DNA of 64,000 bases from Eubacteriales bacterium (lineage in GTDB: Bacteria; Bacillota; Clostridia; Oscillospirales; CAG-272), in contig JAZNII010000045.1 in assembly GCA_045577415.1 (NCBI GenBank), positions 1,815-65,814 on the forward strand, given 5' to 3'. Under the pieces are notes generated by a model, which did no database searches, had not been told where the DNA came from, and worked only from the letters and a program-made list of their open reading frames with translations. The position numbers and the translations under genes are program-made. Below, piece after piece: positions 15,013 to 53,339 of this stretch (position 1 is its first letter; each line of letters opens with the position of its first letter).

Positions 15013-15086
15013 GCGAGTGTAGTTCAATGGTAGAATCCCAGCCTTCCAAGCTGGTCGCGTGGGTTCGATTCCCATCACTCGCTCCA
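15013..15086 (+). tRNA. tRNA-Gly (anticodon TCC)
   Basis: Cloverleaf folded by hand: acceptor GCGAGTG/CACTCGC, anticodon stem CCAGC/GCTGG with loop CTTCCAA, T-arm GTGGG-TTCGATT-CCCAT, encoded CCA. Confidence 0.9.
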
Positions 15087-15088
15087 CC

Positions 15089-15131
15089 GGCAGTGCCGGT
15101 CCCGAAAGGGTTTCGTCACTGCCGATTTTTT
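15089..15131 (+). terminator. terminator-like hairpin between tRNA-Gly and tRNA-Arg
   Basis: GGCAGTG / CACTGCC outer stem with inner CCC-gaaa-GGG, followed by gaTTTTTT. It may be an attenuating or processing element inside the tRNA cluster. Confidence 0.45.
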
Positions 15132-15149
15132 ATTGAATTTCATAAAAAT

Positions 15150-15226
15150 GTGCCTTTAGCTCAGCTGGATAGAGCAACTGCCTTCTAAGCAGTAGGTCGG
15201 GGGTTCGAGTCCCTCAAGGCACGCCA
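15150..15226 (+). tRNA. tRNA-Arg (anticodon TCT)
   Basis: Acceptor GTGCCTT/AAGGCAC, D-arm GCTC..GAGC, anticodon stem ACTGC/GCAGT with loop CTTCTAA, T-arm GGGGG-TTCGAGT-CCCTC, encoded CCA. Confidence 0.9.
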
Positions 15227-15229
15227 GAT

Positions 15230-15307
15230 GGTGGGTATGGCTCAGTTGGTTAGAGCGTCAGGTTGTGGCCCTGAAGGCCGTGGGTTCGAATCCCATTACT
15301 CACCCCA
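15230..15307 (+). tRNA. tRNA-His (anticodon GTG) with encoded G-1
   Basis: An extra 5' G pairs with C73. Acceptor GTGGGTA/TACTCAC, anticodon loop TTGTGGC, T-arm GTGGG-TTCGAAT-CCCAT, encoded CCA. Confidence 0.9.
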
Positions 15308-23280: not shown

Positions 23281-23355
23281 TGGAGCTGGTGGTGGGATTT
23301 GAACCCACGGCCTATTGATTACGAATCAATTGCGCTACCCCTGCGCCACACCAGC
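23281..23355 (-). tRNA. tRNA-Thr (anticodon CGT)
   Basis: The reverse complement folds as acceptor GCTGGTG/CACCAGC, anticodon stem ATTGA/TCAAT with loop TTCGTAA, T-arm GTGGG-TTCAAAT-CCCAC, encoded CCA. Confidence 0.9.
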
Positions 23356-45182: not shown

Positions 45183-46484
45183 TTATTTAACGTTTCGGAG
45201 ATCCTTGACTCTCTTTGCCTTGCCCTCAAAGCGCTGGAGGGTGTTGGGGGATTCGAGCATTATCTTTGCGTCAAGACCGAGAACTATCTTAAGCTTATTT
45301 TTAAGTGTCTTTGAGATCTTTTCAAGAGTTGCGAAGGAGTCGGTTATGTGAGCAAGCTCGACCTTGACGGTAAGCTTATCGAGATAGCCCTCGCGCTCAA
45401 GCACAATTTCGTAGTGAGGGCCAAGCTCGTCGATGCTGAGAATGACCTCCTCGATCTGGCTGGGGAATACGTTGACTCCGCGGATCTTGAGCATATCGTC
45501 GCTTCTGCCCGAGAGGTTTTCCATACGGCAAAACGTTCTGCCGCACTTGCACTTCTCGTAGAAAAGTCTCGTTATATCCTTGGTTCTGTAACGGATAAGG
45601 GGAAGTCCCTCTTTTTTGATGCAGGTGATAACAAGCTCGCCCTGCTCGCCCGCGGGAAGCACCTCGCCGGTCTGGGGATCGATGATCTCGGGGATGAAGA
45701 AATCCTCGTTGATGTGCATACCACAAACCTCAAGGCATTCGCCCGAAACACCGGGACCCATAAGCTCGCTCATTCCGTAGTTGGATGTTATCTTGATGTC
45801 ATCTCCCCAGTATTTGTGCATCTCCTCGCGCATAGCGTCGGTGAGAAGCTCGCTTCCGACAAGCGCTATCTTGATCTTAAGATCCTTTGCGGGGTCAAGA
45901 CCCATCTCTCTCGCCACCTCGGCAAGACGGAGAGCGTAGGAGGGGGTAGCGACCAGCAGCGAGGTCTCAAAATCCTGCATATACATTATCTGCTTTTCGG
46001 AGTTGCCCGTGGAGGAGGGAACGATAGCCGCGCCGATATTTTCAAGTCCGTAGTGAAGTCCGAGAGCGCCCGTGAACATTCCGTAGCCGAAGCAGATCTG
46101 CGCTACGTCACGGCTTGTAGCGCCGCCCATACAAGCGATACGCGACACGCACTCGGTCCAGGTCTCGAGGTCGCCCTGAGTGTAACCGACGACGGTAGGC
46201 TTGCCCGTAGTACCGCTGGACGCGTGGATTCTCACGAGATCGTCCTTGGGAACCGCAAAAAGACCGAAGGGGTAGTTGTCTCTCATATCCTGCTTGGTGA
46301 CGAATGGGAGCTTGGAGAGATCCTTCAAGGTCTTGATGTCCTCGGGTTTCACGCCTGCCTCGTCCATCTTTTTTCTGTAAGGCTCGACCTTCTCGTATAC
46401 GCGAGCGACGGTCTCCTGCAAGCGCTCAAGCTGTATTTTTTCGATTTCTTCTCTCGGAAGAGTTTCTTCTTTTGACCAGATCAT
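45183..46484 (-). CDS. paaK: phenylacetate--CoA ligase family protein (second copy)
   Basis: 433 aa, ASSGTTGKPTVV. Paralogue of 41522-42820. Confidence 0.88.
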   Translation of the reverse strand: MIWSKEETLPREEIEKIQLERLQETVARVYEKVEPYRKKMDEAGVKPEDIKTLKDLSKLPFVTKQDMRDNYPFGLFAVPKDDLVRIHASSGTTGKPTVVGYTQGDLETWTECVSRIACMGGATSRDVAQICFGYGMFTGALGLHYGLENIGAAIVPSSTGNSEKQIMYMQDFETSLLVATPSYALRLAEVAREMGLDPAKDLKIKIALVGSELLTDAMREEMHKYWGDDIKITSNYGMSELMGPGVSGECLEVCGMHINEDFFIPEIIDPQTGEVLPAGEQGELVITCIKKEGLPLIRYRTKDITRLFYEKCKCGRTFCRMENLSGRSDDMLKIRGVNVFPSQIEEVILSIDELGPHYEIVLEREGYLDKLTVKVELAHITDSFATLEKISKTLKNKLKIVLGLDAKIMLESPNTLQRFEGKAKRVKDLRNVK

Positions 46485-46512
46485 TTTATTGTACCTTCAC
46501 TGAATTTATGCT

Positions 46513-48057
46513 TTATTTTATTTCGCCCTCAAAAGGCTTGCCGAATGCGTTGTTAATTATTTCGTCGTCGGGTCTCTTGGTGCAGAGACTGACGATAACG
46601 GTGATTATCAGCGAGAATATCATACATATAACGCCGATAAGGGGAGAGCAGCCCACGCCGCTCTGAAGCGCAGTGCCAAAGTCGCACGCCCAGCCGTTCT
46701 TGTCGAAGCCCAGCACGACTATAAGCGTCGCGGTAAGCACGAGGGAGCTGATTATCGATGTCCAGACCGCAGGCTTTGTTACTCGTTTCCAGATAACACC
46801 GAGGACGTAAGGACCCATAAAGCAGCCCGCAAGCGTACCCCAGCTAAGACCCATCATATAAGCGATAGCGGCGACCTCGAATTCCTCGTTGAGAATTGCG
46901 AGAATTACCGAGATAGCGACAAACACAAGACACAAAAGTCTCATGATGGTGTTGACCTTCTTGTCCTTCGCATCCTTGTTGATAGCGCCCTTGTAGATGT
47001 CAACTGCGATGACCGACGCGCTGGCAAGGGAGACAGACGAGAGCGTTGACATGCTTGCCGAAAGTATCAGCACGGCGATAACACCCATAAGTCCCGCAGG
47101 GATAACTGTCTTCAACATAGAGGGAATTACGAGAGAATCCGAAACGCCCTGCGTCTCGGGGAAGAAATAACTGAGCGCGCCCGTGAAATAAGCGGCAAAG
47201 CCGATGATCAGTGCAAAGGCTGTGCTGACCACTATTCCTTGGGTTATCGCCTTTTTGTCGCGGATGGCGTAGTATTTATGTATCGTCTGGGGGAGCGCCC
47301 AAACGCCGAGAGATGTCAGCAGAGTAAGGGAGATCAGCGAGACGGTAGTGCCGTAGATCCCCGACGCGTTTTCATTTCCAAATGTGATCCAAGTGAGATC
47401 GGGGTTATTTACAAGCTCGGAGATGTTCCAAGAAACGTTCTCATGATTCATAAAGCAGAAAATCATGCACACAACGCCGACTATCATAATGATTCCCTGA
47501 ATGAAATCCGACAGAGCGGTTGCGAAATATCCGCCGAAGAAAAGATAGAGAGCGGTAAGAGCCGCAAGGGCGATCATAACGATCCAGCCTTCAATGCCGA
47601 AGACCGTCTCAAAAAGGGCGCTGAGACCGTTGTAGACCGACGCGGAATAGGGGATCAGGAAAATAAAGATAACGATTGCGGAAAAGAGCTTGAGATTTTT
47701 GCTTCCATAGCGCTTTTCGAAAAATTCGGGCATTGTTTTCGCCTCAAGACGGCGGGTCATATTCTTGGTTCTCTTTGCAAGCACCAGCCAAGCGAAAAGC
47801 GTACCGATGATTGCGTTGCCAATGCCTATCCAAATTGCGGCAAGACCGAACTGCCTGCCGAACTGTCCCGCATAGCCGATGAAAATGACGGCAGAGAAGT
47901 AGGTGGTGCCATAAGCGAAGGCGGTCATCCAGCCGTTAAGTCCTTTTTTGCCCGCCAGCAGGAAGTCGTCAACCGATCCCGAGCGGTTTTTCGTATATAT
48001 AGCCACACCCACCATAGCGAGCGCGTAAATAGCTAAAATCAGATAATCCCAAAACAT
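46513..48057 (-). CDS. sodium:solute symporter family transporter
   Basis: About 13 TM helices with an SSF-like pattern. The ATG at 48057 (MFWDYL) is preferred, with AGGGGA upstream. Confidence 0.85.
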   Translation of the reverse strand: MFWDYLILAIYALAMVGVAIYTKNRSGSVDDFLLAGKKGLNGWMTAFAYGTTYFSAVIFIGYAGQFGRQFGLAAIWIGIGNAIIGTLFAWLVLAKRTKNMTRRLEAKTMPEFFEKRYGSKNLKLFSAIVIFIFLIPYSASVYNGLSALFETVFGIEGWIVMIALAALTALYLFFGGYFATALSDFIQGIIMIVGVVCMIFCFMNHENVSWNISELVNNPDLTWITFGNENASGIYGTTVSLISLTLLTSLGVWALPQTIHKYYAIRDKKAITQGIVVSTAFALIIGFAAYFTGALSYFFPETQGVSDSLVIPSMLKTVIPAGLMGVIAVLILSASMSTLSSVSLASASVIAVDIYKGAINKDAKDKKVNTIMRLLCLVFVAISVILAILNEEFEVAAIAYMMGLSWGTLAGCFMGPYVLGVIWKRVTKPAVWTSIISSLVLTATLIVVLGFDKNGWACDFGTALQSGVGCSPLIGVICMIFSLIITVIVSLCTKRPDDEIINNAFGKPFEGEIK

Positions 48058-48109
48058 TGTAAAAGTCCCCTGTGAAAATGCTCTGTTCTCCATAAAAAAG
48101 AATAGAAAT

Positions 48110-48138
48110 ATTATATCACAAGGAGCGAGATTTGTCAA
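48110..48138 (-). promoter_or_regulatory. promoter of the symporter-paaK-ior operon
   Basis: Minus strand: TTGACA (48133-48138), 17 nt, extended -10 TGaTATAAT (-10 hexamer at 48110-48115). Confidence 0.65.
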
Positions 48139-48151
48139 TAAGTAATTGACA
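48133..48151. promoter_or_regulatory. perfect inverted repeat overlapping the -35 (candidate operator)
   Basis: TGTCAAT aagta ATTGACA: 7-bp arms with a 5-bp spacer. Confidence 0.45.
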
Positions 48152-48253
48152 TTTTCCGATAAATTTCATCAATTTAGAAGACTAAAATCCGAGCTTTTTG
48201 AGCATTTGCATATTTATGTGAATATTTGGGGCGAATAAAGACGTTTTTCTCCT

Positions 48254-48282
48254 CAAAAAGCACCCCTTTTCAGAGGTGCTTT
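48254..48282 (-). terminator. intrinsic terminator of the GTPase-NYN gene
   Basis: Minus strand: AAGCACC ucugaaaagg GGUGCUU followed by UUUUG; 7 nt after the stop codon. Confidence 0.7.
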
Positions 48283-48288
48283 CATGCT

Positions 48289-50871
48289 TTATTGCTGACT
48301 TTCGGTCAATTTTTTTATAAAAGCGGTGATCTCGTTGCCGACGCGCGTCAGCTCGTCGATAAATTCCTGCGCAGTCATACGCAAAATGCCCGAATGAACG
48401 GCAGAGAATTGCAAAAGTCTGTCTCCCGTTACCATTCTGATGCTGTAATCTGGCCCCAAATCGTGCATTACCTTTTCAATATAAGCGTCGGCGGTCTGAT
48501 CTGCCTTGGTGTAGATTACCTTGTAGCCGTCCTTCGAAAATTCCGAACCCTCGCCGTCCTTGACGAGATAGGCATCAAAAACCAACAGAAGCTCCACCTT
48601 GGTGTATGCCACGTAGCTTGAAAGGACATCCATAAGCTCCTCTCGCGCCTTTTCAAGGCTGAAATCGGCGGTCTTCTTGAGATCATCCCAAGAATATATC
48701 AGATTGTAGCCGTCGATTATCACCATGTTTCGCTGAGGCTTCAGATTTTTGACCCTCGGCGGCTTTTCGCTCTTAGGCGCGGAGATGCTTTTGGGTTCCT
48801 TGTACTGTCTGCGCTTGACGGGACCGAATTCGCGGAGCATTATCGCTTCAAGCTCCTCGTCGCTGATGTGATATTTTCTCGCAAGAGAAGCAGCTCTCGG
48901 AATAACGGTCTCGCCTTTGTCCGAAAGGGAAATCCCTGGATCAAGGTGCTTATAGTCGTCCACCTCTCTCCAGTTGACCACAAATCCCGCGCCGTGGTCG
49001 CAGAACACCGAATGAGGTGTGTTTTCAAGGTCGCTTTCGGGATCGTAAGCAGCATTTTGTGCTATTTCCTCGGCATTGTGACAGGGCTCATATCCGTCGC
49101 TGACGCAGGAAAGCCTGCCCTCGCCGCGAGTGTATGAAATGACCTCGCGAGTGTAGTCGTGAAGCGTTGAAACCGGCGCTCTGCCCACGATTACCGTGAG
49201 ATTTTCGTCGGAGGACTCGATCTCAAATTCCGCGCTCCTCGCTTGCAGGTCGGACATAGCTCTGCCCACTTGATTTTGCGGTATCTCAAGACGGAATTTA
49301 TAATATGGCTCAAGGAGAGTGCAGCCACCCTTCATAAGTCCGTGACGCACCGCGCGCAATGTCGCTTCGCGGAAATCGCCGCCCTCGGTGTGCTTGAGAT
49401 GAGCCTTGCCCGCCACGAGAGTGATCTTTGTGTCGGTCAAGATCGCGCCGATCTGGGTGCCTCGGTGATCTTTTTCGTAAAGGTGCGAGAGAATAAGCCT
49501 TTGCCAATTTAGGTCAAGAGCGTTTTCGGGGAGTTTTGTGTCAAAGATAAGTCCGCTTCCTTTAGGCTGAGGCTCAAGGAGAAGCTGAACCTCGGCGTAG
49601 TGGCGCAGAGGCTCAAAATGTCCTACTCCAATCGCCTTTTTCGCTATCTTTTCTTTGTATAGAATTCTGCCCGCATCAAGGGTGCAATCGATAGAAAATC
49701 TTTCGAAAATAAGCCTTTTTATAAGGTCTATCTGTATCTCTCCCATAAGCCTTGCCTCGATCTCGGCAAGCTCCTCGTTCCATGAAAGATGCAAGGACGG
49801 TTCTTCCTCCTCAAGCTCCTTGAGCTTTGGAAAATACAGCATCGGGTCGAATCCCTCGGGGAGATTTATTCGATAAGAGAGGACAGGCTCCAGCATAGGC
49901 TTCTCACCGTCGCTTTCAACACCGAGTCCAAGCCCCGCAAAAGTAGCAGATAGTCCTAAAACGGCGCAGATCTCGCCTGCGGACACTTTTTCGGTCTGCT
50001 CAAATTTTTCACCCGAATAAAGCCTTATCTGACTGACCTTTTCTGCGTGTTTTTTGCCCTCGCAAACGTAGGTCAGCTCGTCGCGCGCAGACAGAGAACC
50101 GCCCGTGATCTTCATATATGTCAGTCTCGTACCGCCCGCGCGAGAAATTTTGAACACCCTTGCGCCGAATCTTTCGCTATCGTAGACGGGGGATAGAGAG
50201 TATTTGTCGATCGTGTCAAGGAGAAAGCCGATGCCCGTCATGCGGAGCGCCGAGCCGAAAAGACAAGGGAACAGGCGGCGAGATACGATCAATTCGGCAA
50301 TATCGACGTCATCGATCTCTCTACCCGCGAGAAAATCTTCTAAAAAGTCCTCGTTGACCATAGCAAGCTTTTCGTCAAGCTCGCTCTTGCTTTGCTTTTC
50401 GTGAAATCCGACGCAGAGAGGGGAAAGAGTCTTTGAAAGCTCGGCTTCCATATCCTCGGCAAGCTTGATCGACACGTCGGTCTTATTGACGAAAACAAAG
50501 GTCGGTACACCGTATATTTCAAGCAGCTGCCAAAGGGTTCTGGTGTGATTTTGCACTCCGTCGGGAGCGCTGACAACCAAAATTGCGTAGTCAAGCAGGG
50601 AGAGAACTCGCTCTGCCTCGGCAGAAAAATCTACGTGACCGGGGGTGTCAAGGAGGATAAAATCGCAGTTTTCGCTTGAAAAACGAGCCTGCTTTGAAAA
50701 AATAGTGATTCCGCGCTCACGCTCGACCGCATTTGTGTCAAGATAGGTATTTTTATGGTCAACGCGCCCAAGAGTTCGTATTCTGCCCGAAATATAGAGC
50801 AGAGCCTCGGAGAGCGTAGTCTTGCCCGCGTCAACGTGAGCTAAAATTCCGATAGTAAGCTTCTTTTTCAT
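48289..50871 (-). CDS. TetM/EF-G-like translational GTPase fused to a C-terminal YacP/Rae1-like NYN domain
   Basis: 860 aa in one frame. G1 AHVDAGKTT, G2 RGITI, G3 DTPGH, G4 NKTD, then EF-G-like domains II-V to about aa 640. A K/P-rich linker follows, then VIIDGYNLI..LLVFDAY..KADQTADAYIE..VTGDRLL, matching the YacP/Rae1 layout. Confidence 0.85.
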   Translation of the reverse strand: MKKKLTIGILAHVDAGKTTLSEALLYISGRIRTLGRVDHKNTYLDTNAVERERGITIFSKQARFSSENCDFILLDTPGHVDFSAEAERVLSLLDYAILVVSAPDGVQNHTRTLWQLLEIYGVPTFVFVNKTDVSIKLAEDMEAELSKTLSPLCVGFHEKQSKSELDEKLAMVNEDFLEDFLAGREIDDVDIAELIVSRRLFPCLFGSALRMTGIGFLLDTIDKYSLSPVYDSERFGARVFKISRAGGTRLTYMKITGGSLSARDELTYVCEGKKHAEKVSQIRLYSGEKFEQTEKVSAGEICAVLGLSATFAGLGLGVESDGEKPMLEPVLSYRINLPEGFDPMLYFPKLKELEEEEPSLHLSWNEELAEIEARLMGEIQIDLIKRLIFERFSIDCTLDAGRILYKEKIAKKAIGVGHFEPLRHYAEVQLLLEPQPKGSGLIFDTKLPENALDLNWQRLILSHLYEKDHRGTQIGAILTDTKITLVAGKAHLKHTEGGDFREATLRAVRHGLMKGGCTLLEPYYKFRLEIPQNQVGRAMSDLQARSAEFEIESSDENLTVIVGRAPVSTLHDYTREVISYTRGEGRLSCVSDGYEPCHNAEEIAQNAAYDPESDLENTPHSVFCDHGAGFVVNWREVDDYKHLDPGISLSDKGETVIPRAASLARKYHISDEELEAIMLREFGPVKRRQYKEPKSISAPKSEKPPRVKNLKPQRNMVIIDGYNLIYSWDDLKKTADFSLEKAREELMDVLSSYVAYTKVELLLVFDAYLVKDGEGSEFSKDGYKVIYTKADQTADAYIEKVMHDLGPDYSIRMVTGDRLLQFSAVHSGILRMTAQEFIDELTRVGNEITAFIKKLTESQQ

Positions 50872-50945
50872 GCTATTCCTCCTTTCGTTTTAATCAAATG
50901 CGCCCTGCCATAGCGCAGGGCGCGTTGGAATATGTGGCGGAGACG

Positions 50946-52532
50946 TTATTCTCCTTGAGAAGCGCCTGCAAGGGCCTTTTCCACGGCAGCTACAAGCTCC
51001 TCGTGTTTGATGGATCCTGTGAATTTATCGGTTATCACACCCTCGCCGTTGATCACGACGGTAGTGGGGCAGGCTTGGATGTCAAAAAGATCTTGACATT
51101 TCATGCCATCGTCCCAACAGATAAGCATAGTGCCGTCGTTCCATTCGCGATGTCCCGACGAGCTATCGATCCAAGCAGTGGCATCAACGCCCGGCATCTC
51201 GATATGTAGCGCCAAAACCGTCACGCTTTCGCCGTATTCGCTTGCCACGTCGTAAAAGTGCGGAAGCTCCTCAACGCAAGGACCGCAGGTGGTGTACCAG
51301 AAGTTGAGAACCACTACCTTGCCACTATTAGCTTCAAGGTCGAATTTTTCACCGCTTGAAAGTATTGTGGGAGATATATCGGGGCAGAGATTGCCGACAG
51401 AGGTTCCGACGGGCGGTTTGACGTTTTCGCCTTCCGAGCCGCTTTCGCTCTCTGTCTGCTCGGTTTCATCGCTTGGGAAGAAAGCATTAAGATCCATGCC
51501 GTCAAATGCGTTGAAATATAAGAGAACACCCGAAAGAAGCGCAATCATGACCGCTGCCGTCACCGCAGTTTTTACGGTGTTTTCGGCACGCTTTTTCTTG
51601 TTTCTTTCTTCAATTATAGCTTTTTCTTCCTCGGTCGCCTTGGGAGATATAGCCTCCATGGGAGAGTTTATGACGAATTTAGGTCCTTTCATGATTATAG
51701 CGCCCGTAGGACACGCGCTGATACATTCGCCGCAGGAAATGCACTCGTGGTCGCCAACGCGCTTTATGTCCATCTTGCACTTGCCCACGCATATTCCACA
51801 GTCGATGCAGGATTTTTTGTCAAGCTTCACTCCGATAAGAGCAAACTTGTTGAAAAAGCCGTAAATAGCTCCCAACGGGCAGATAAAGCGGCAGAACATA
51901 CGGAATATGAAAACGCACGCCACAAGGAATGACACCATGAGCAAAAATTTCCAAGTAAAGAGCGGGCCTAACATACGCAGATAGCTTTCGTTGACCGCGT
52001 TTGACAGAAGTCCCATAGCGCCCTCAAGTGTTCCCGCGGGGCATATATATTTGCAAAATCCGGGGAGAGGGAAGCTTCTGAATGCGTAAGCCAAGGGAAC
52101 TATTCCTACGAAAAAGGCAAGGACAACGTACTTGAAATAAGAGAGAACTCGTGTGAGCTTGCCCTTTTTGAGCTTAGGAGTGGGGATCTTATGTAAAAGC
52201 TCTTGAATAAGTCCGAATGGGCAGAGAAATCCGCATATCCAACGTCCGAACAGAACTCCGTAGAGCATGATGATACCGAATACGTAATAGGGTACGGTCT
52301 TGTTGCTCGAAGACAACGCGTTTTGTAAAGCTCCCAGAGGACAAGCGCCCGACGCTCCGGGGCAGGAGTAGCAGTTAAGACCGGGGGTGCAAATGTTTTT
52401 TAAGGGTCCCGTATAGATCTGACCCGTAAAAAATCCCTTTATGTTCGCGTTGAAAAGCAGAGCGGCGTAGAGCTGAATAAGCCTTCTTTTGGTGGGAAGG
52501 CGTTTTTTTATCCAATTAAATACTTTTTTCAT
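50946..52532 (-). CDS. NapH/MauN-like membrane polyferredoxin fused to a C-terminal TlpA-like thioredoxin-fold domain
   Basis: CxxCP/CP motifs (CYSCPGASGACPLG, CPFGLIQE, CPAGTLEG, CPLGAIYG), 2x[4Fe-4S] (CIDCGICVGKC, CISCGECISACP), an extra TM helix, then VVLNFWYTTCGPC (CGPC at 51276-51287). Confidence 0.8.
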   Translation of the reverse strand: MKKVFNWIKKRLPTKRRLIQLYAALLFNANIKGFFTGQIYTGPLKNICTPGLNCYSCPGASGACPLGALQNALSSSNKTVPYYVFGIIMLYGVLFGRWICGFLCPFGLIQELLHKIPTPKLKKGKLTRVLSYFKYVVLAFFVGIVPLAYAFRSFPLPGFCKYICPAGTLEGAMGLLSNAVNESYLRMLGPLFTWKFLLMVSFLVACVFIFRMFCRFICPLGAIYGFFNKFALIGVKLDKKSCIDCGICVGKCKMDIKRVGDHECISCGECISACPTGAIIMKGPKFVINSPMEAISPKATEEEKAIIEERNKKKRAENTVKTAVTAAVMIALLSGVLLYFNAFDGMDLNAFFPSDETEQTESESGSEGENVKPPVGTSVGNLCPDISPTILSSGEKFDLEANSGKVVVLNFWYTTCGPCVEELPHFYDVASEYGESVTVLALHIEMPGVDATAWIDSSSGHREWNDGTMLICWDDGMKCQDLFDIQACPTTVVINGEGVITDKFTGSIKHEELVAAVEKALAGASQGE

Positions 52533-52547
52533 ATAAAACACCGCCTA

Positions 52548-53339
52548 TCAACCAAGTCCGATGCACTCGGTACATATATTTATCGCCTTTGAAAGAACAT
52601 CTGCCATGCCGCCGTTGAATATTCCCAAAATGATGAAAATAACCGCTACGGCAATAACGATCACCCTTGTGGAAAGGATCGAATATCTTTCCTTTCTGCA
52701 CTTGCACTCCGAGCATCCGTTCTTTTCGAGCTTTTCCGCTTTTCCTTCGGCAATAAGAGCCTTGATCGTCTTTATCTGCTTGTTGAGCAGAAGATTTTCA
52801 ACGTAGACGTAAGCCGAAGCAATAAGCGCGCAGGCAAGGAAACAGGGAATTATCAGATAGCAAAGGTTAATTATGCTTTGGTTGTAATCTGCGGTATAGC
52901 TTGCGGGAAGGCATACGACGATCAGCGCGGGAAGTGACAAAAGAGCGCATAAAGTACAAGCCGCCGCCTTCAGAACGAGACAAAGTGTTTTTGCCTTTTT
53001 GACGGGTGCCACGTCCTCTTTTTCGCAAGCCGAGAGATCATATTTTGATATAAGTCGGTCAAGAGTAACGCGAGGGTCGAGCTTTGATTTAAAGGAATTT
53101 TCGTCAAGAGGCATAAATATTTTAATACAACCGCCCACAGCAACCGCGCCTACGGCAACGTACAGAATTATCTGAATTTTTTCAAACGCCGCCGAGATAG
53201 AGTCGGGCGTGAAAGGGCGATTGCCAAGCTGGTAGATGTTATAGCAGGACACTATCAGTAAAATACCAGATACGATAAGCAGTACCGAGAGCAGTATCCC
53301 GTATATCAGATATACGATTTTTTTCGTCTTATTTGACAT
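52548..53339 (-). CDS. polytopic membrane protein ending in CxxC motifs (C-terminus resembles the CD1871A-type CxxC family)
   Basis: 263 aa with about 6 TM helices. CSECKC, then a final TM helix and ...KAINICTECIGLG at the C-terminus. The family resemblance is from memory only. Confidence 0.55.
   Translation of the reverse strand: MSNKTKKIVYLIYGILLSVLLIVSGILLIVSCYNIYQLGNRPFTPDSISAAFEKIQIILYVAVGAVAVGGCIKIFMPLDENSFKSKLDPRVTLDRLISKYDLSACEKEDVAPVKKAKTLCLVLKAAACTLCALLSLPALIVVCLPASYTADYNQSIINLCYLIIPCFLACALIASAYVYVENLLLNKQIKTIKALIAEGKAEKLEKNGCSECKCRKERYSILSTRVIVIAVAVIFIILGIFNGGMADVLSKAINICTECIGLG

Follow-up and report, generated by a model that had tools for sequence, protein, structure and literature searches.

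A conserved Clostridia protein that joins an EF-G/Tet-like translational GTPase to a Rae1-type NYN endoribonuclease domain

Introduction

Stand-alone Rae1, also known as YacP, is an endoribonuclease that cuts messenger RNA (mRNA) only if the ribosomes on it are translating, stalled or collided, leading to tagging by transfer-messenger RNA (tmRNA) (PMC12407103, PMC13622287, PMC10351889). The laboratory that had proposed cleavage in the A site has revised its view, and on ribosomes that have stalled or collided the cut is now placed ~12 nucleotides (nt) upstream of the A site (PMC12407103, PMC13622287), and Rae1 has been proposed to cut between collided ribosomes and so to make substrates for tmRNA (PMC13622287). 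Stand-alone Rae1 reaches ribosomes by a transient interaction, and it is because binding is transient that there is no ribosome-bound structure of Rae1 (2026 preprint, PMC13622287). Here we describe a gene in which a Rae1-type nuclease domain is part of the same polypeptide as a translational GTPase; it lies in a 64,000-nt stretch of DNA from an Eubacteriales bacterium (contig JAZNII010000045.1, positions 1,815 to 65,814 of the forward strand), the whole of which we refer to as the window.

In several known systems a sensor of the state of the ribosome is coupled to, or delivers, an endonuclease and the mRNA is cut on stalled ribosomes, which are thereby rescued, namely SmrB of Escherichia coli, MutS2/RqcU (an ATPase plus an SMR domain), and Cue2 and Hbs1-Dom34 of eukaryotic no-go decay (PMC13622287); the SMR domain of Bacillus subtilis MutS2 is not catalytically active (PMC13622287). 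The protein described here may be analogous to these systems in outline. However, systems of the SmrB/MutS2/Cue2 type employ SMR nucleases, recognise the disome interface or ubiquitin rather than the factor-binding site, and have no kinship with the present protein in sequence or fold.

Domain IV of elongation factor G (EF-G) and of TetM reaches the decoding centre of the ribosome. Within domain IV of Tet(M), loop III is reported to be the functionally most important element (PMC4750697). Fusions of a TetM-like GTPase to an NYN_YacP domain in Clostridia have already been recorded, by Atkinson in 2015 (PMC4342817) and by Matelska et al. in 2017 (PMC5499597), in neither case with functional work, and both reports speculate on ribonuclease (RNase)-assisted resistance (PMC4342817, PMC5499597). 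The protein of the window is one of these catalogued fusions, having a Tet-like translational GTPase and a C-terminal NYN_YacP domain in one polypeptide, with its nearest relatives in Clostridia, Oscillospiraceae and "Ca. Avispirillum". The architecture was thus published in 2015 and 2017, and what is new here is an updated context, the scale of the family and a definition of its motifs.

Results

One reading frame encodes an EF-G-type body and a Rae1-type domain

The fusion gene is a single unbroken open reading frame (ORF) with an ATG start that occupies positions 48289..50871 of the window on the minus strand and encodes 860 amino acids (aa) followed by a stop codon (the features of this gene given below all lie on the minus strand and are in window coordinates). 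Domains were assigned by a Pfam scan of the 860-aa protein, structures were predicted with AlphaFold2 (AF2), and folds were compared with Foldseek. A first-pass annotation of this DNA, made from the sequence alone, had read the ORF as a GTPase joined to a YacP/Rae1-type NYN domain, and this is borne out by the ORF list, by the Pfam domains, and by a set of 80 related loci that we retrieved by using the NYN segment to scan GTDB genomes, one from each species, in all of which (80/80) the same fused ORF is found.

The N-terminal part of the protein comprises a G domain (residues 4-224, 50200..50862; Pfam GTP_EFTU, E = 5e-48) with the motifs G1 AHVDAGKTT, G2 RGITI, G3 DTPGH, which contains the catalytic His79, and G4 NKTD; a domain II (residues 237-311, 49939..50163; Pfam EF-G_D2 and a Foldseek match to ribosome-bound EF-G); a domain III (residues 329-398, 49678..49887; a weak match to Pfam EFG_III and a colinear alignment with TetO/TetM); a domain IV (residues 402-515, 49327..49668; Pfam EFG_IV); and a domain V (residues 519-599, 49075..49317; Pfam EFG_C, E = 6e-19). 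With G1-G4, the catalytic His after DxxG, and domains II-V all in place, the protein belongs to the translational GTPase superfamily (EF2 family). Residues 600-644 (48940..49074) constitute a family-specific C-terminal minidomain (YDPE.D..N...SVFC.HGAG..V.W.EV) that is defined by its conservation and has no Pfam match, and that AF2 models, with low confidence, as a β-hairpin plus a helix. Thereafter come a fusion-specific spacer with a conserved helix at its end (residues 645-685, 48817..48939; from conservation and AF2), a basic and predicted-disordered linker (residues 686-716, 48724..48816, KRRQYKEPKSISAPKSEKPPRVKNLKPQRNM; from AF2 and the alignment), and a Rae1/YacP-type NYN endoribonuclease domain (residues 717-860, 48292..48723; from Pfam, alignment with Rae1 and fold superposition) with Asp720, Asp766, Asp795 and Asp817.

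The first-pass annotation had extended the GTPase to residue ~640; the EF-G/Tet domain order that it had described is there, but the canonical five-domain body stops at ~599 and what follows up to residue 644 is the minidomain, which belongs to neither TetM nor EF-G. The motifs that it had quoted are all present, those of the G domain as well as IIDGYN, VFDAY, TADAYIE and VTGDRLL of the NYN domain, and so is the Lys/Pro-rich linker, predicted to be disordered. The AF2 model of the full-length protein, which is of moderate quality (predicted local distance difference test score (pLDDT) 68, predicted template-modelling score (pTM) 0.44), consists of a five-domain EF-G-type body, a disordered stretch at residues 678-713 and a separately folded NYN domain. 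For the EF-G-type body the top Foldseek matches are ribosome-bound EF-G structures (E = 4e-40).

The C-terminal domain retains the fold and active site of Rae1

The Pfam NYN_YacP profile (PF05991) matches residues 717-857 with E = 1.3e-36 and 126.6 bits, against a gathering cut-off of 24.6 bits. The last 145 aa align with residues 3-145 of B. subtilis Rae1/YacP (PDB 5MQ8/5MQ9) with E = 1e-19, and the identity of the NYN domain to the stand-alone Rae1 proteins of B. subtilis and Clostridioides difficile is 32-36% (36% for C. difficile). The first-pass annotation had aligned these residues by eye, along their whole length, with Rae1. That alignment holds up to Rae1 residue 145. The profile match spans positions 1-143 of 166, and the ~25 residues with which stand-alone Rae1 ends are absent from the clade of this protein; some other fusion clades retain them (as seen in a Pfam scan of 10 proteins).

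An NYN_YacP active site is defined as having at least four Asp residues (Matelska et al. 2017, PMC5499597). In the fusion protein D720, D766, D795 and D817 line up with the Rae1 motifs DGYN, VFDAH, TAD and SD, and these four residues are invariant in 89 close homologues and at least 90% conserved in 150 diverse ones. In an AF2 model of the last 265 residues pLDDT is ~90 across the NYN domain, and this domain superimposes on 5MQ9 over 142 columns with a target-normalised TM score of 0.75 and a root-mean-square deviation of 2.0 Å (E = 7e-10), whereas the second-best fold in the PDB is matched with E = 0.03. The C-terminal domain thus has the Rae1 fold and all four active-site Asp residues, and differs from Rae1 in its setting, Rae1 being a free protein of ~170 aa and the NYN domain of the fusion following a 716-aa GTPase plus tether. 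By analogy with Rae1, the activity expected of the domain is ribosome-dependent endonucleolysis of mRNA that feeds rescue by tmRNA, and the fusion is best described as a variant of Rae1, a ribosome-associated endonuclease, with a built-in translational GTPase.

Alternatively, the GTPase might dock on the ribosome and the NYN domain cut a nearby element of ribosomal RNA (rRNA), such as H69, the 3′ region of 16S rRNA, the sarcin-ricin region or the L11-stalk region, or else a transfer RNA (tRNA) bound there, and so serve in rRNA maturation, in quality control of defective ribosomes, or in shutting down or turning over ribosomes when cells starve or sporulate. On a bound ribosome, domain V and the minidomain, at the C-terminus of the GTPase body, would be near rRNA, and a basic linker suits contacts with RNA. 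Nevertheless, the only characterised member of NYN_YacP, Rae1, is a translation-dependent mRNA endonuclease, the fused domain retains both the fold and the active site of Rae1, and no data indicate a specific rRNA target, so that we consider cleavage of rRNA or tRNA unlikely.

The GTPase resembles Tet proteins and EF-G and carries loops of its own in domain IV

Among named families the protein scores highest with NCBIfam tet_protect (NF012153), at 385.8 bits against a cut-off of 775. Other Tet models are missed by a wider margin (NF033148, 259 versus 1100; Tet(M), 222 versus 1420), the EF-G equivalog TIGR00484 gives 244.3 bits against a cut-off of 659.4, and the PRK12740 models likewise remain under their cut-offs. 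TetO and TetM score 240 and 230 bits versus ~210 for EF-G. A single alignment pairs residues 4-597 of the protein with residues 3-613 of TetO (E = 5e-70), the five-domain body being colinear throughout; the alignment with EF-G comes in two pieces, with a break within and after the G domain.

Two motifs of domain IV serve as signatures of the family in our alignments, that of loop I (GVGHFEPLRHYAEV, residues 415-428, 49588..49629) and that of loop III (AGKAHLKHTEGGDFREAT, residues 487-504, 49360..49413). The position of the TetM loop III, YYSPVST (TetM L505-V510), is taken in the fusion protein by AHLKHTEGG, and that of the TetM PNPFWAS loop by EPLRHYAEV. His491, within the loop III motif, aligns with the tip His of Thermus thermophilus EF-G.

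With Tet(M) and Tet(O), its nearest named family by score, the protein shares the five-domain EF-G-like layout, colinear over ~590 residues, and an extension C-terminal to domain V. However, its extension is unrelated to theirs and bears a nuclease, their drug-displacing loop III and PNPFWA loop are replaced by other, strongly conserved motifs, and its gene is chromosomal, whereas tet genes are typically found on mobile elements. With EF-G it shares G1-G4 including the catalytic His, the five-domain fold and the His at the tip of domain IV, but it is far below the EF-G cut-offs, has other loops in domain IV, and has in addition the minidomain, the tether and the nuclease. The TetM/EF-G-like label given in the first pass fits the colinearity with TetO/TetM, but the protein is only loosely of the TetM type. 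As judged from its sequence, the GTPase is a separate EF-G/Tet-like subfamily that exists also without the nuclease.

According to a published idea (Atkinson 2015, PMC4342817), the protein would be a ribosomal protection protein (RPP) against tetracycline or another A-site antibiotic, with the GTPase ejecting the drug and the NYN domain adding an RNA-processing step that helps in resistance. Of all named families and solved structures, Tet RPPs give the best full-length matches, and the NCBI pipeline names several members as TetM/TetW/TetO/TetS family proteins. Against this, the score is half of the tet_protect cut-off and the specific Tet models are missed by more; both TetM loops are replaced, and what replaces loop III hardly varies over 150 clusters; in 80 related gut species the gene stands free in the chromosome, without mobile-element neighbours, unlike horizontally spreading tet genes; and unfused relatives of the GTPase sit beside housekeeping genes. 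Because of the half-cut-off score and the lack of conservation of loop III we did not file the protein as an RPP, and we regard such a role as highly improbable. (Note that many members, fused and unfused alike, are mis-annotated, in that they carry the automatic name 'TetM/TetW/TetO/TetS family tetracycline resistance ribosomal protection protein', for example WP_306784676.1, MBQ9959402.1 and WP_164920261.1. This naming probably inflates resistome counts in gut metagenomes.)

The fusion is retained across Clostridia

The 80 loci come from gut or rumen metagenome-assembled genomes (MAGs) of Clostridia, Oscillospiraceae or "Ca. Avispirillum". Each has its NYN match within a single long ORF, 857-911 aa in length except for a few that are cut short by contig edges, and pairwise identity among the fused proteins of this set is 73% at the median and 63% at the lowest. 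A more diverse set was obtained from a HMMER search of 1.84 billion representatives at 50% identity, from which we took the best 150 matches, 40-55% identical to our protein. Counted by alignment, together with the 10-protein Pfam scan, 145 of these 150 cluster representatives are fused, with lengths of 830-1156 aa; the score at rank 150 is still ~600 bits, indicating that the family is larger than 150 clusters. The fusion spans Oscillospirales, Lachnospirales, Monoglobales and Mogibacterium, and its cultured or named carriers include Agathobacter rectalis (Lachnospirales; 933 aa), Monoglobus pectinilyticus (862 aa) and Mogibacterium sp. (901 aa).

Both catalytic centres are conserved in this diverse set. 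In the 151 aligned sequences (our protein and the 150 representatives) DTPGH is found in 149 and AHVD[AS]GKTT in 128, G4 is kept as NKxD, and the NYN motifs are kept as DGYN, VFDAY, TADxYIE and T[SG]D, from which we conclude that both centres are under selection. The most conserved segment of the protein is domain IV, with a mean column identity of 0.90 across 71 species. Its loop I, G[VIA]GH[FY]EPLRHYAE[VA], is found in at least 104 of the 151 sequences, and in the loop III signature, AG[KR]AHxKHTEGGDFR[EQ]AT, the residues K, H, T, D and F are each at least 90% conserved in the 150 representatives. That domain IV is the most conserved segment and carries near-invariant loops peculiar to the family argues for a specific, conserved contact with the ribosome. 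Retention of the fusion across species and clusters in turn argues for long-term selection for physical linkage of the two parts. The domain scan, architecture search and structure prediction called for in the first pass have thus been carried out, and they show the fusion to be widespread and confirm its domains and the Rae1 fold; the linker holds no stop or frameshift, the acidic residues of the NYN domain are conserved, and the family is catalogued yet uncharacterised.

Two of the MAGs supply two fusion contigs each. In one (contigs L006 and L007) the two are identical over their common part, which points to redundancy of the assembly. In the other (L036 and L040) they are 85.5% identical and L040 is only 2.2 kb long, so contamination of the bin by a related strain is likelier than a paralogue.

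A fusion-specific helix and a basic tether connect the two parts

AF2 places helices at residues 660-667 and 671-681 of the spacer, which has the helix motif E-[LIV]-x-x-I-[FLM]-x-[RK]-x-[YF]-G; of the 145 fused representatives, 134 have E673, 132 have I677 and 107 have G683. The motif is missing from unfused relatives. Over residues 678-713 pLDDT is below 50. Among the same 145 proteins the linker is 5-86 aa long (median 34), its sequence is not conserved, and it is 26% Lys plus Arg, as compared with 11% in the body; spacer and linker jointly amount to 33-191 residues (median 83). A linker that is disordered, basic, and variable in both length and sequence fits a tether rather than a rigid interface.

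A long, variable and disordered linker would also be compatible with halves that act independently, joined for co-expression or stoichiometry only, or with a GTPase that merely anchors Rae1 near ribosomes, with no licensing by ribosome state and no control by GTP. Both halves do exist separately elsewhere, as stand-alone Rae1 and as unfused GTPase, and one contig has a copy split by a frameshift. Yet the fusion is kept in at least 145 clusters at 50% identity, in several orders of Clostridia, a conserved helix found only in the fusions (E..I..R.YG) comes before the linker, no internal start from which free nuclease could be made is conserved, and the sole split copy differs by one frameshift from a fused protein to which it is 98-100% identical. 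We therefore hold independence of the halves to be quite improbable. An internal start at Met716, which would yield a free Rae1, was considered and rejected: Met716 is clade-specific, Tyr being commonest at this position, and no Shine-Dalgarno sequence precedes it, so no free nuclease is to be expected from it.

The split copy is on one contig (L088, 6139-6148; ENA ERZ28019011, contig k141_594920), where a single frameshift in the linker leaves a 719-aa GTPase ORF and a 138-aa NYN ORF. The two sides are 100% and 98% identical to the 901-aa fused protein of Mogibacterium sp., MBR0308096.1, of the same 90% cluster, and this near-identity indicates a sequencing error or a very recent lesion and not a stable two-gene form. 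For the same reason we rejected the split gene as Rosetta-stone evidence.

The converse error, adjacent genes joined in an assembly through a missed stop or frameshift in the linker, finds nothing in the window to suggest it, its only support being this unrelated contig, which shows that the opposite error can occur in this region. All 80 of the 80 species-level assemblies and 145 of the 150 representatives are fused, and cultured isolates with complete records carry the fusion too. Together with E-values of 1e-36 to 1e-48, a fused frame in 80 other species rules out chance and artefact, and the probability that we give to the latter is negligible.

GTPases without the nuclease, and the usual place of stand-alone Rae1

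Members of the GTPase subfamily that lack the nuclease include a 644-aa protein of Ligilactobacillus salivarius, encoded on the megaplasmid pMP118 (WP_164920261; 47% identical over residues 3-644), and the cluster P0236, a 656-aa form with eight full-length members. These unfused proteins are 46-47% identical to the fusion protein over residues 3-644 and end right after the minidomain. Loop I and the SVFC.HGAG minidomain are common to the fused proteins, P0236, a further cluster, P0257, and the L. salivarius protein, and loop III is found also in P0236 and P0257. The likeness lies in the body, loop I and the minidomain, and the difference in the nuclease part: spacer helix, linker and NYN domain are all missing from the unfused relatives, whose genes have no NYN gene close by. 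Their genes lie among housekeeping genes. On pMP118 of L. salivarius UCC118 (locus L081, 4526-6917) the gene of the 644-aa GTPase is divergent from a second rpsN (encoding S14) and a 'putative metal homeostasis protein', an arrangement that could connect the GTPase with the biology of alternative ribosomes or of metal limitation.

The gene for stand-alone Rae1 is usually encoded after rlmB (gltX-cysS-mrnC-rlmB-yacP-sigH), an arrangement that we see in C. difficile, whereas the fusion gene is free-standing elsewhere in the chromosome. We looked for stand-alone Rae1 in the window and the 80 loci, and at the rlmB loci of a related MAG (L036), of Monoglobus and of Vescimonas. Neither rlmB nor sigH is in the window. 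The yacP slot adjacent to rlmB is empty in L036 and in M. pectinilyticus, and among the Monoglobus records searched, in a collection where the genome is only partly represented, the only NYN_YacP match is the fusion. If genomes that bear the fusion are without a stand-alone Rae1, then the fusion is their Rae1. (In L036 the region 3′ of rlmB, 650-1700, which is the place of yacP in Bacilli and C. difficile, has only low-complexity ORFs rich in Lys/Arg that overlap on the two strands, and no gene can be recognised in it.)

A tethered nuclease that may be gated by the state of the ribosome

The first-pass annotation had proposed that the GTPase may deliver or license a nuclease at the A site, on the understanding that Rae1 is an A-site nuclease. 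That understanding is outdated, and with the cut site of Rae1 revised, one would no longer naturally expect the nuclease to be delivered to the A site. On the other hand, the fusion is real, both of its catalytic centres are intact and we found no functional study of it, so the broader idea, of a GTPase that delivers or licenses a ribosome-associated nuclease, stays the most economical one. In the form that we favour, and to which we would give an even chance, the GTPase senses the state of the ribosome and positions the tethered Rae1-type nuclease to cut mRNA, which feeds rescue by tmRNA. We infer ribosome binding, recognition of a particular ribosome state, an mRNA substrate and coupling to GTP hydrolysis.

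In molecular terms, the polypeptide would be an active ribosome-dependent translational GTPase and a catalytically competent Rae1-type NYN endoribonuclease on a flexible basic tether. The GTPase body would dock at the ribosomal factor-binding site, where the tip of domain IV would probe the decoding centre, and engagement might be limited to one stalled state, either a vacant A site, as with the Tet proteins, or a collision-trapped pre-translocation state, as with EF-G. The tether would keep the nuclease highly concentrated near the entry-side mRNA or the gap between ribosomes, and the message would be cut there; in a disome, the entry side of the trailing ribosome would face the stalled leader at its exit side, where the cuts of Rae1 are mapped. 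GTP hydrolysis would then release the factor, and the truncated mRNA would pass to tmRNA/SmpB rescue, as for stand-alone Rae1. Overall, the protein would unite Rae1 and a sensor of the state of the ribosome in one polypeptide, and would be a bacterial counterpart of no-go decay.

A more specific proposal holds that the GTPase is devoted to sensing ribosomes that have stalled or collided and, by way of the factor-binding site, licenses cleavage of the Rae1 type, that the fusion is the sole Rae1 in much of Clostridia, and that, by Rosetta-stone reasoning, stand-alone Rae1 in other Firmicutes is likewise positioned at the factor side of the (trailing) ribosome, possibly with the unfused paralogue where there is one. 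This we put forward tentatively, as possible but doubtful. If it is true that cleavage is licensed through the factor site, a GTP-controlled bacterial factor of no-go decay would be defined, and a lockable complex (with GDPNP or an H79A mutant) would be at hand from which a Rae1-type nuclease could for the first time be solved in its ribosome-bound form.

Several points weigh against a ribosome-sensing nuclease. Stand-alone Rae1 cuts at the tail (mRNA exit) side, far from the factor site of the same ribosome, so that the geometry needs either binding to the trailing ribosome or a different cut position. The existence of unfused subfamily members means that the GTPase has some function that is independent of the nuclease. 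The choice of mRNA over rRNA or tRNA as substrate is drawn solely from the 32-36% identity to Rae1. The AF2 models are moderate (pTM 0.44 and 0.53) and their relative placement of the domains is unreliable. There is no conserved neighbourhood, as no neighbour family occurs in more than 9 of the 80 loci or at a fixed position, and the evidence on stand-alone yacP, an empty slot in two fusion-bearing lineages, covers the position next to rlmB. Finally, the fusion was first recorded by others, and the mechanism proposed here is inferred throughout, which lessens the interest. Our full-text literature search found no functional study of the fusion, although a passing mention in Rae1 papers is possible. 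Here the first-pass annotation, which knew of no functional description, was right as to function, but the architecture itself was on record.

The fusion bears directly on how Rae1 recognises stalled or collided ribosomes, giving an evolutionary hint as to where and when such nucleases act. It also offers a practical handle, in that GTPase factors can be locked on ribosomes by non-hydrolysable GTP or by catalytic mutants, and it points to a GTP-gated route of mRNA surveillance in Clostridia that abound in gut and rumen, among them A. rectalis and M. pectinilyticus, which are in culture.

Expression signals and genomic context

The fusion gene has a strong Shine-Dalgarno sequence, AAGGAGG (50878..50884), read from the sequence 6 nt before the ATG at 50871. 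Further upstream, directly 3′ of the stop codon of the preceding gene, a terminator scan and the sequence itself reveal a G+C-rich hairpin of 9 bp, 8 of them GC (50900..50923), which is probably the terminator of that upstream gene. No leader or attenuator was recognised before the fusion gene, and there are no Rfam matches in window positions 46000-53000; a tet(M)-like leader, attenuator or riboswitch was accordingly rejected, the hairpin belonging to the previous gene and Rfam being without a match. Downstream, a perfect σ70-type promoter (TTGACA, 17 nt, TATAAT, with an extended -10 TG) at 48110-48138 on the minus strand coincides with the listed TTG start of a sodium:solute symporter-like ORF (46513-48138), so that the true start of the symporter-like gene must be further downstream and this gene has its own promoter, separate from the fusion gene.

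Synteny around the fusion gene in the 80 loci is found only between close relatives. An operon partner, including the helix-turn-helix (HTH) neighbours mentioned by Matelska, was rejected, there being no recurrent neighbour in the 80 loci. The window contains ordinary chromosomal genes and four tRNA genes, a cluster of Gly-TCC, Arg-TCT and His-GTG at 15013-15307 and a lone tRNA-Thr-CGT at 23281-23355, with no mobile-element genes, and a comparison with PADLOC-DB matched 0 defence families.

Phage and plasmid records were also considered. Two human faecal virome records, MT835563.1 (L085) and MT835514.1, which matched in the same region of the query, are labelled 'UNVERIFIED: Bacteriophage sp.'; the former, which we examined, has a full 875-aa fusion beside genes for a DAP epimerase, an NAD(P)HX dehydratase and an aldose epimerase, and with such housekeeping neighbours it looks like bacterial chromosomal DNA and not phage. 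With the PADLOC result empty and the examined 'phage' record being a bacterial-looking virome contig, we rejected a phage-borne or known defence gene. Several PLSDB records of M. pectinilyticus, A. rectalis and Subdoligranulum variabile (NZ_OY725736, NZ_OY725739, NZ_CP143948 and OY725837/OY725846; 116-518 kb) bear core housekeeping genes such as rlmB, rsmI, cysS and a methionyl aminopeptidase gene, are non-mobilizable where typed, and appear to be mislabelled pieces of chromosome. A plasmid-borne gene was likewise rejected, since the two full-length 'plasmid' matches lie on records of 252 and 518 kb that are non-mobilizable and bear housekeeping genes. At the A. rectalis locus (L082, 4310-4818), genes for a BrnT-family toxin and a CopG-family antitoxin lie directly upstream of the fusion gene and divergent from it, an arrangement not seen in the other loci.

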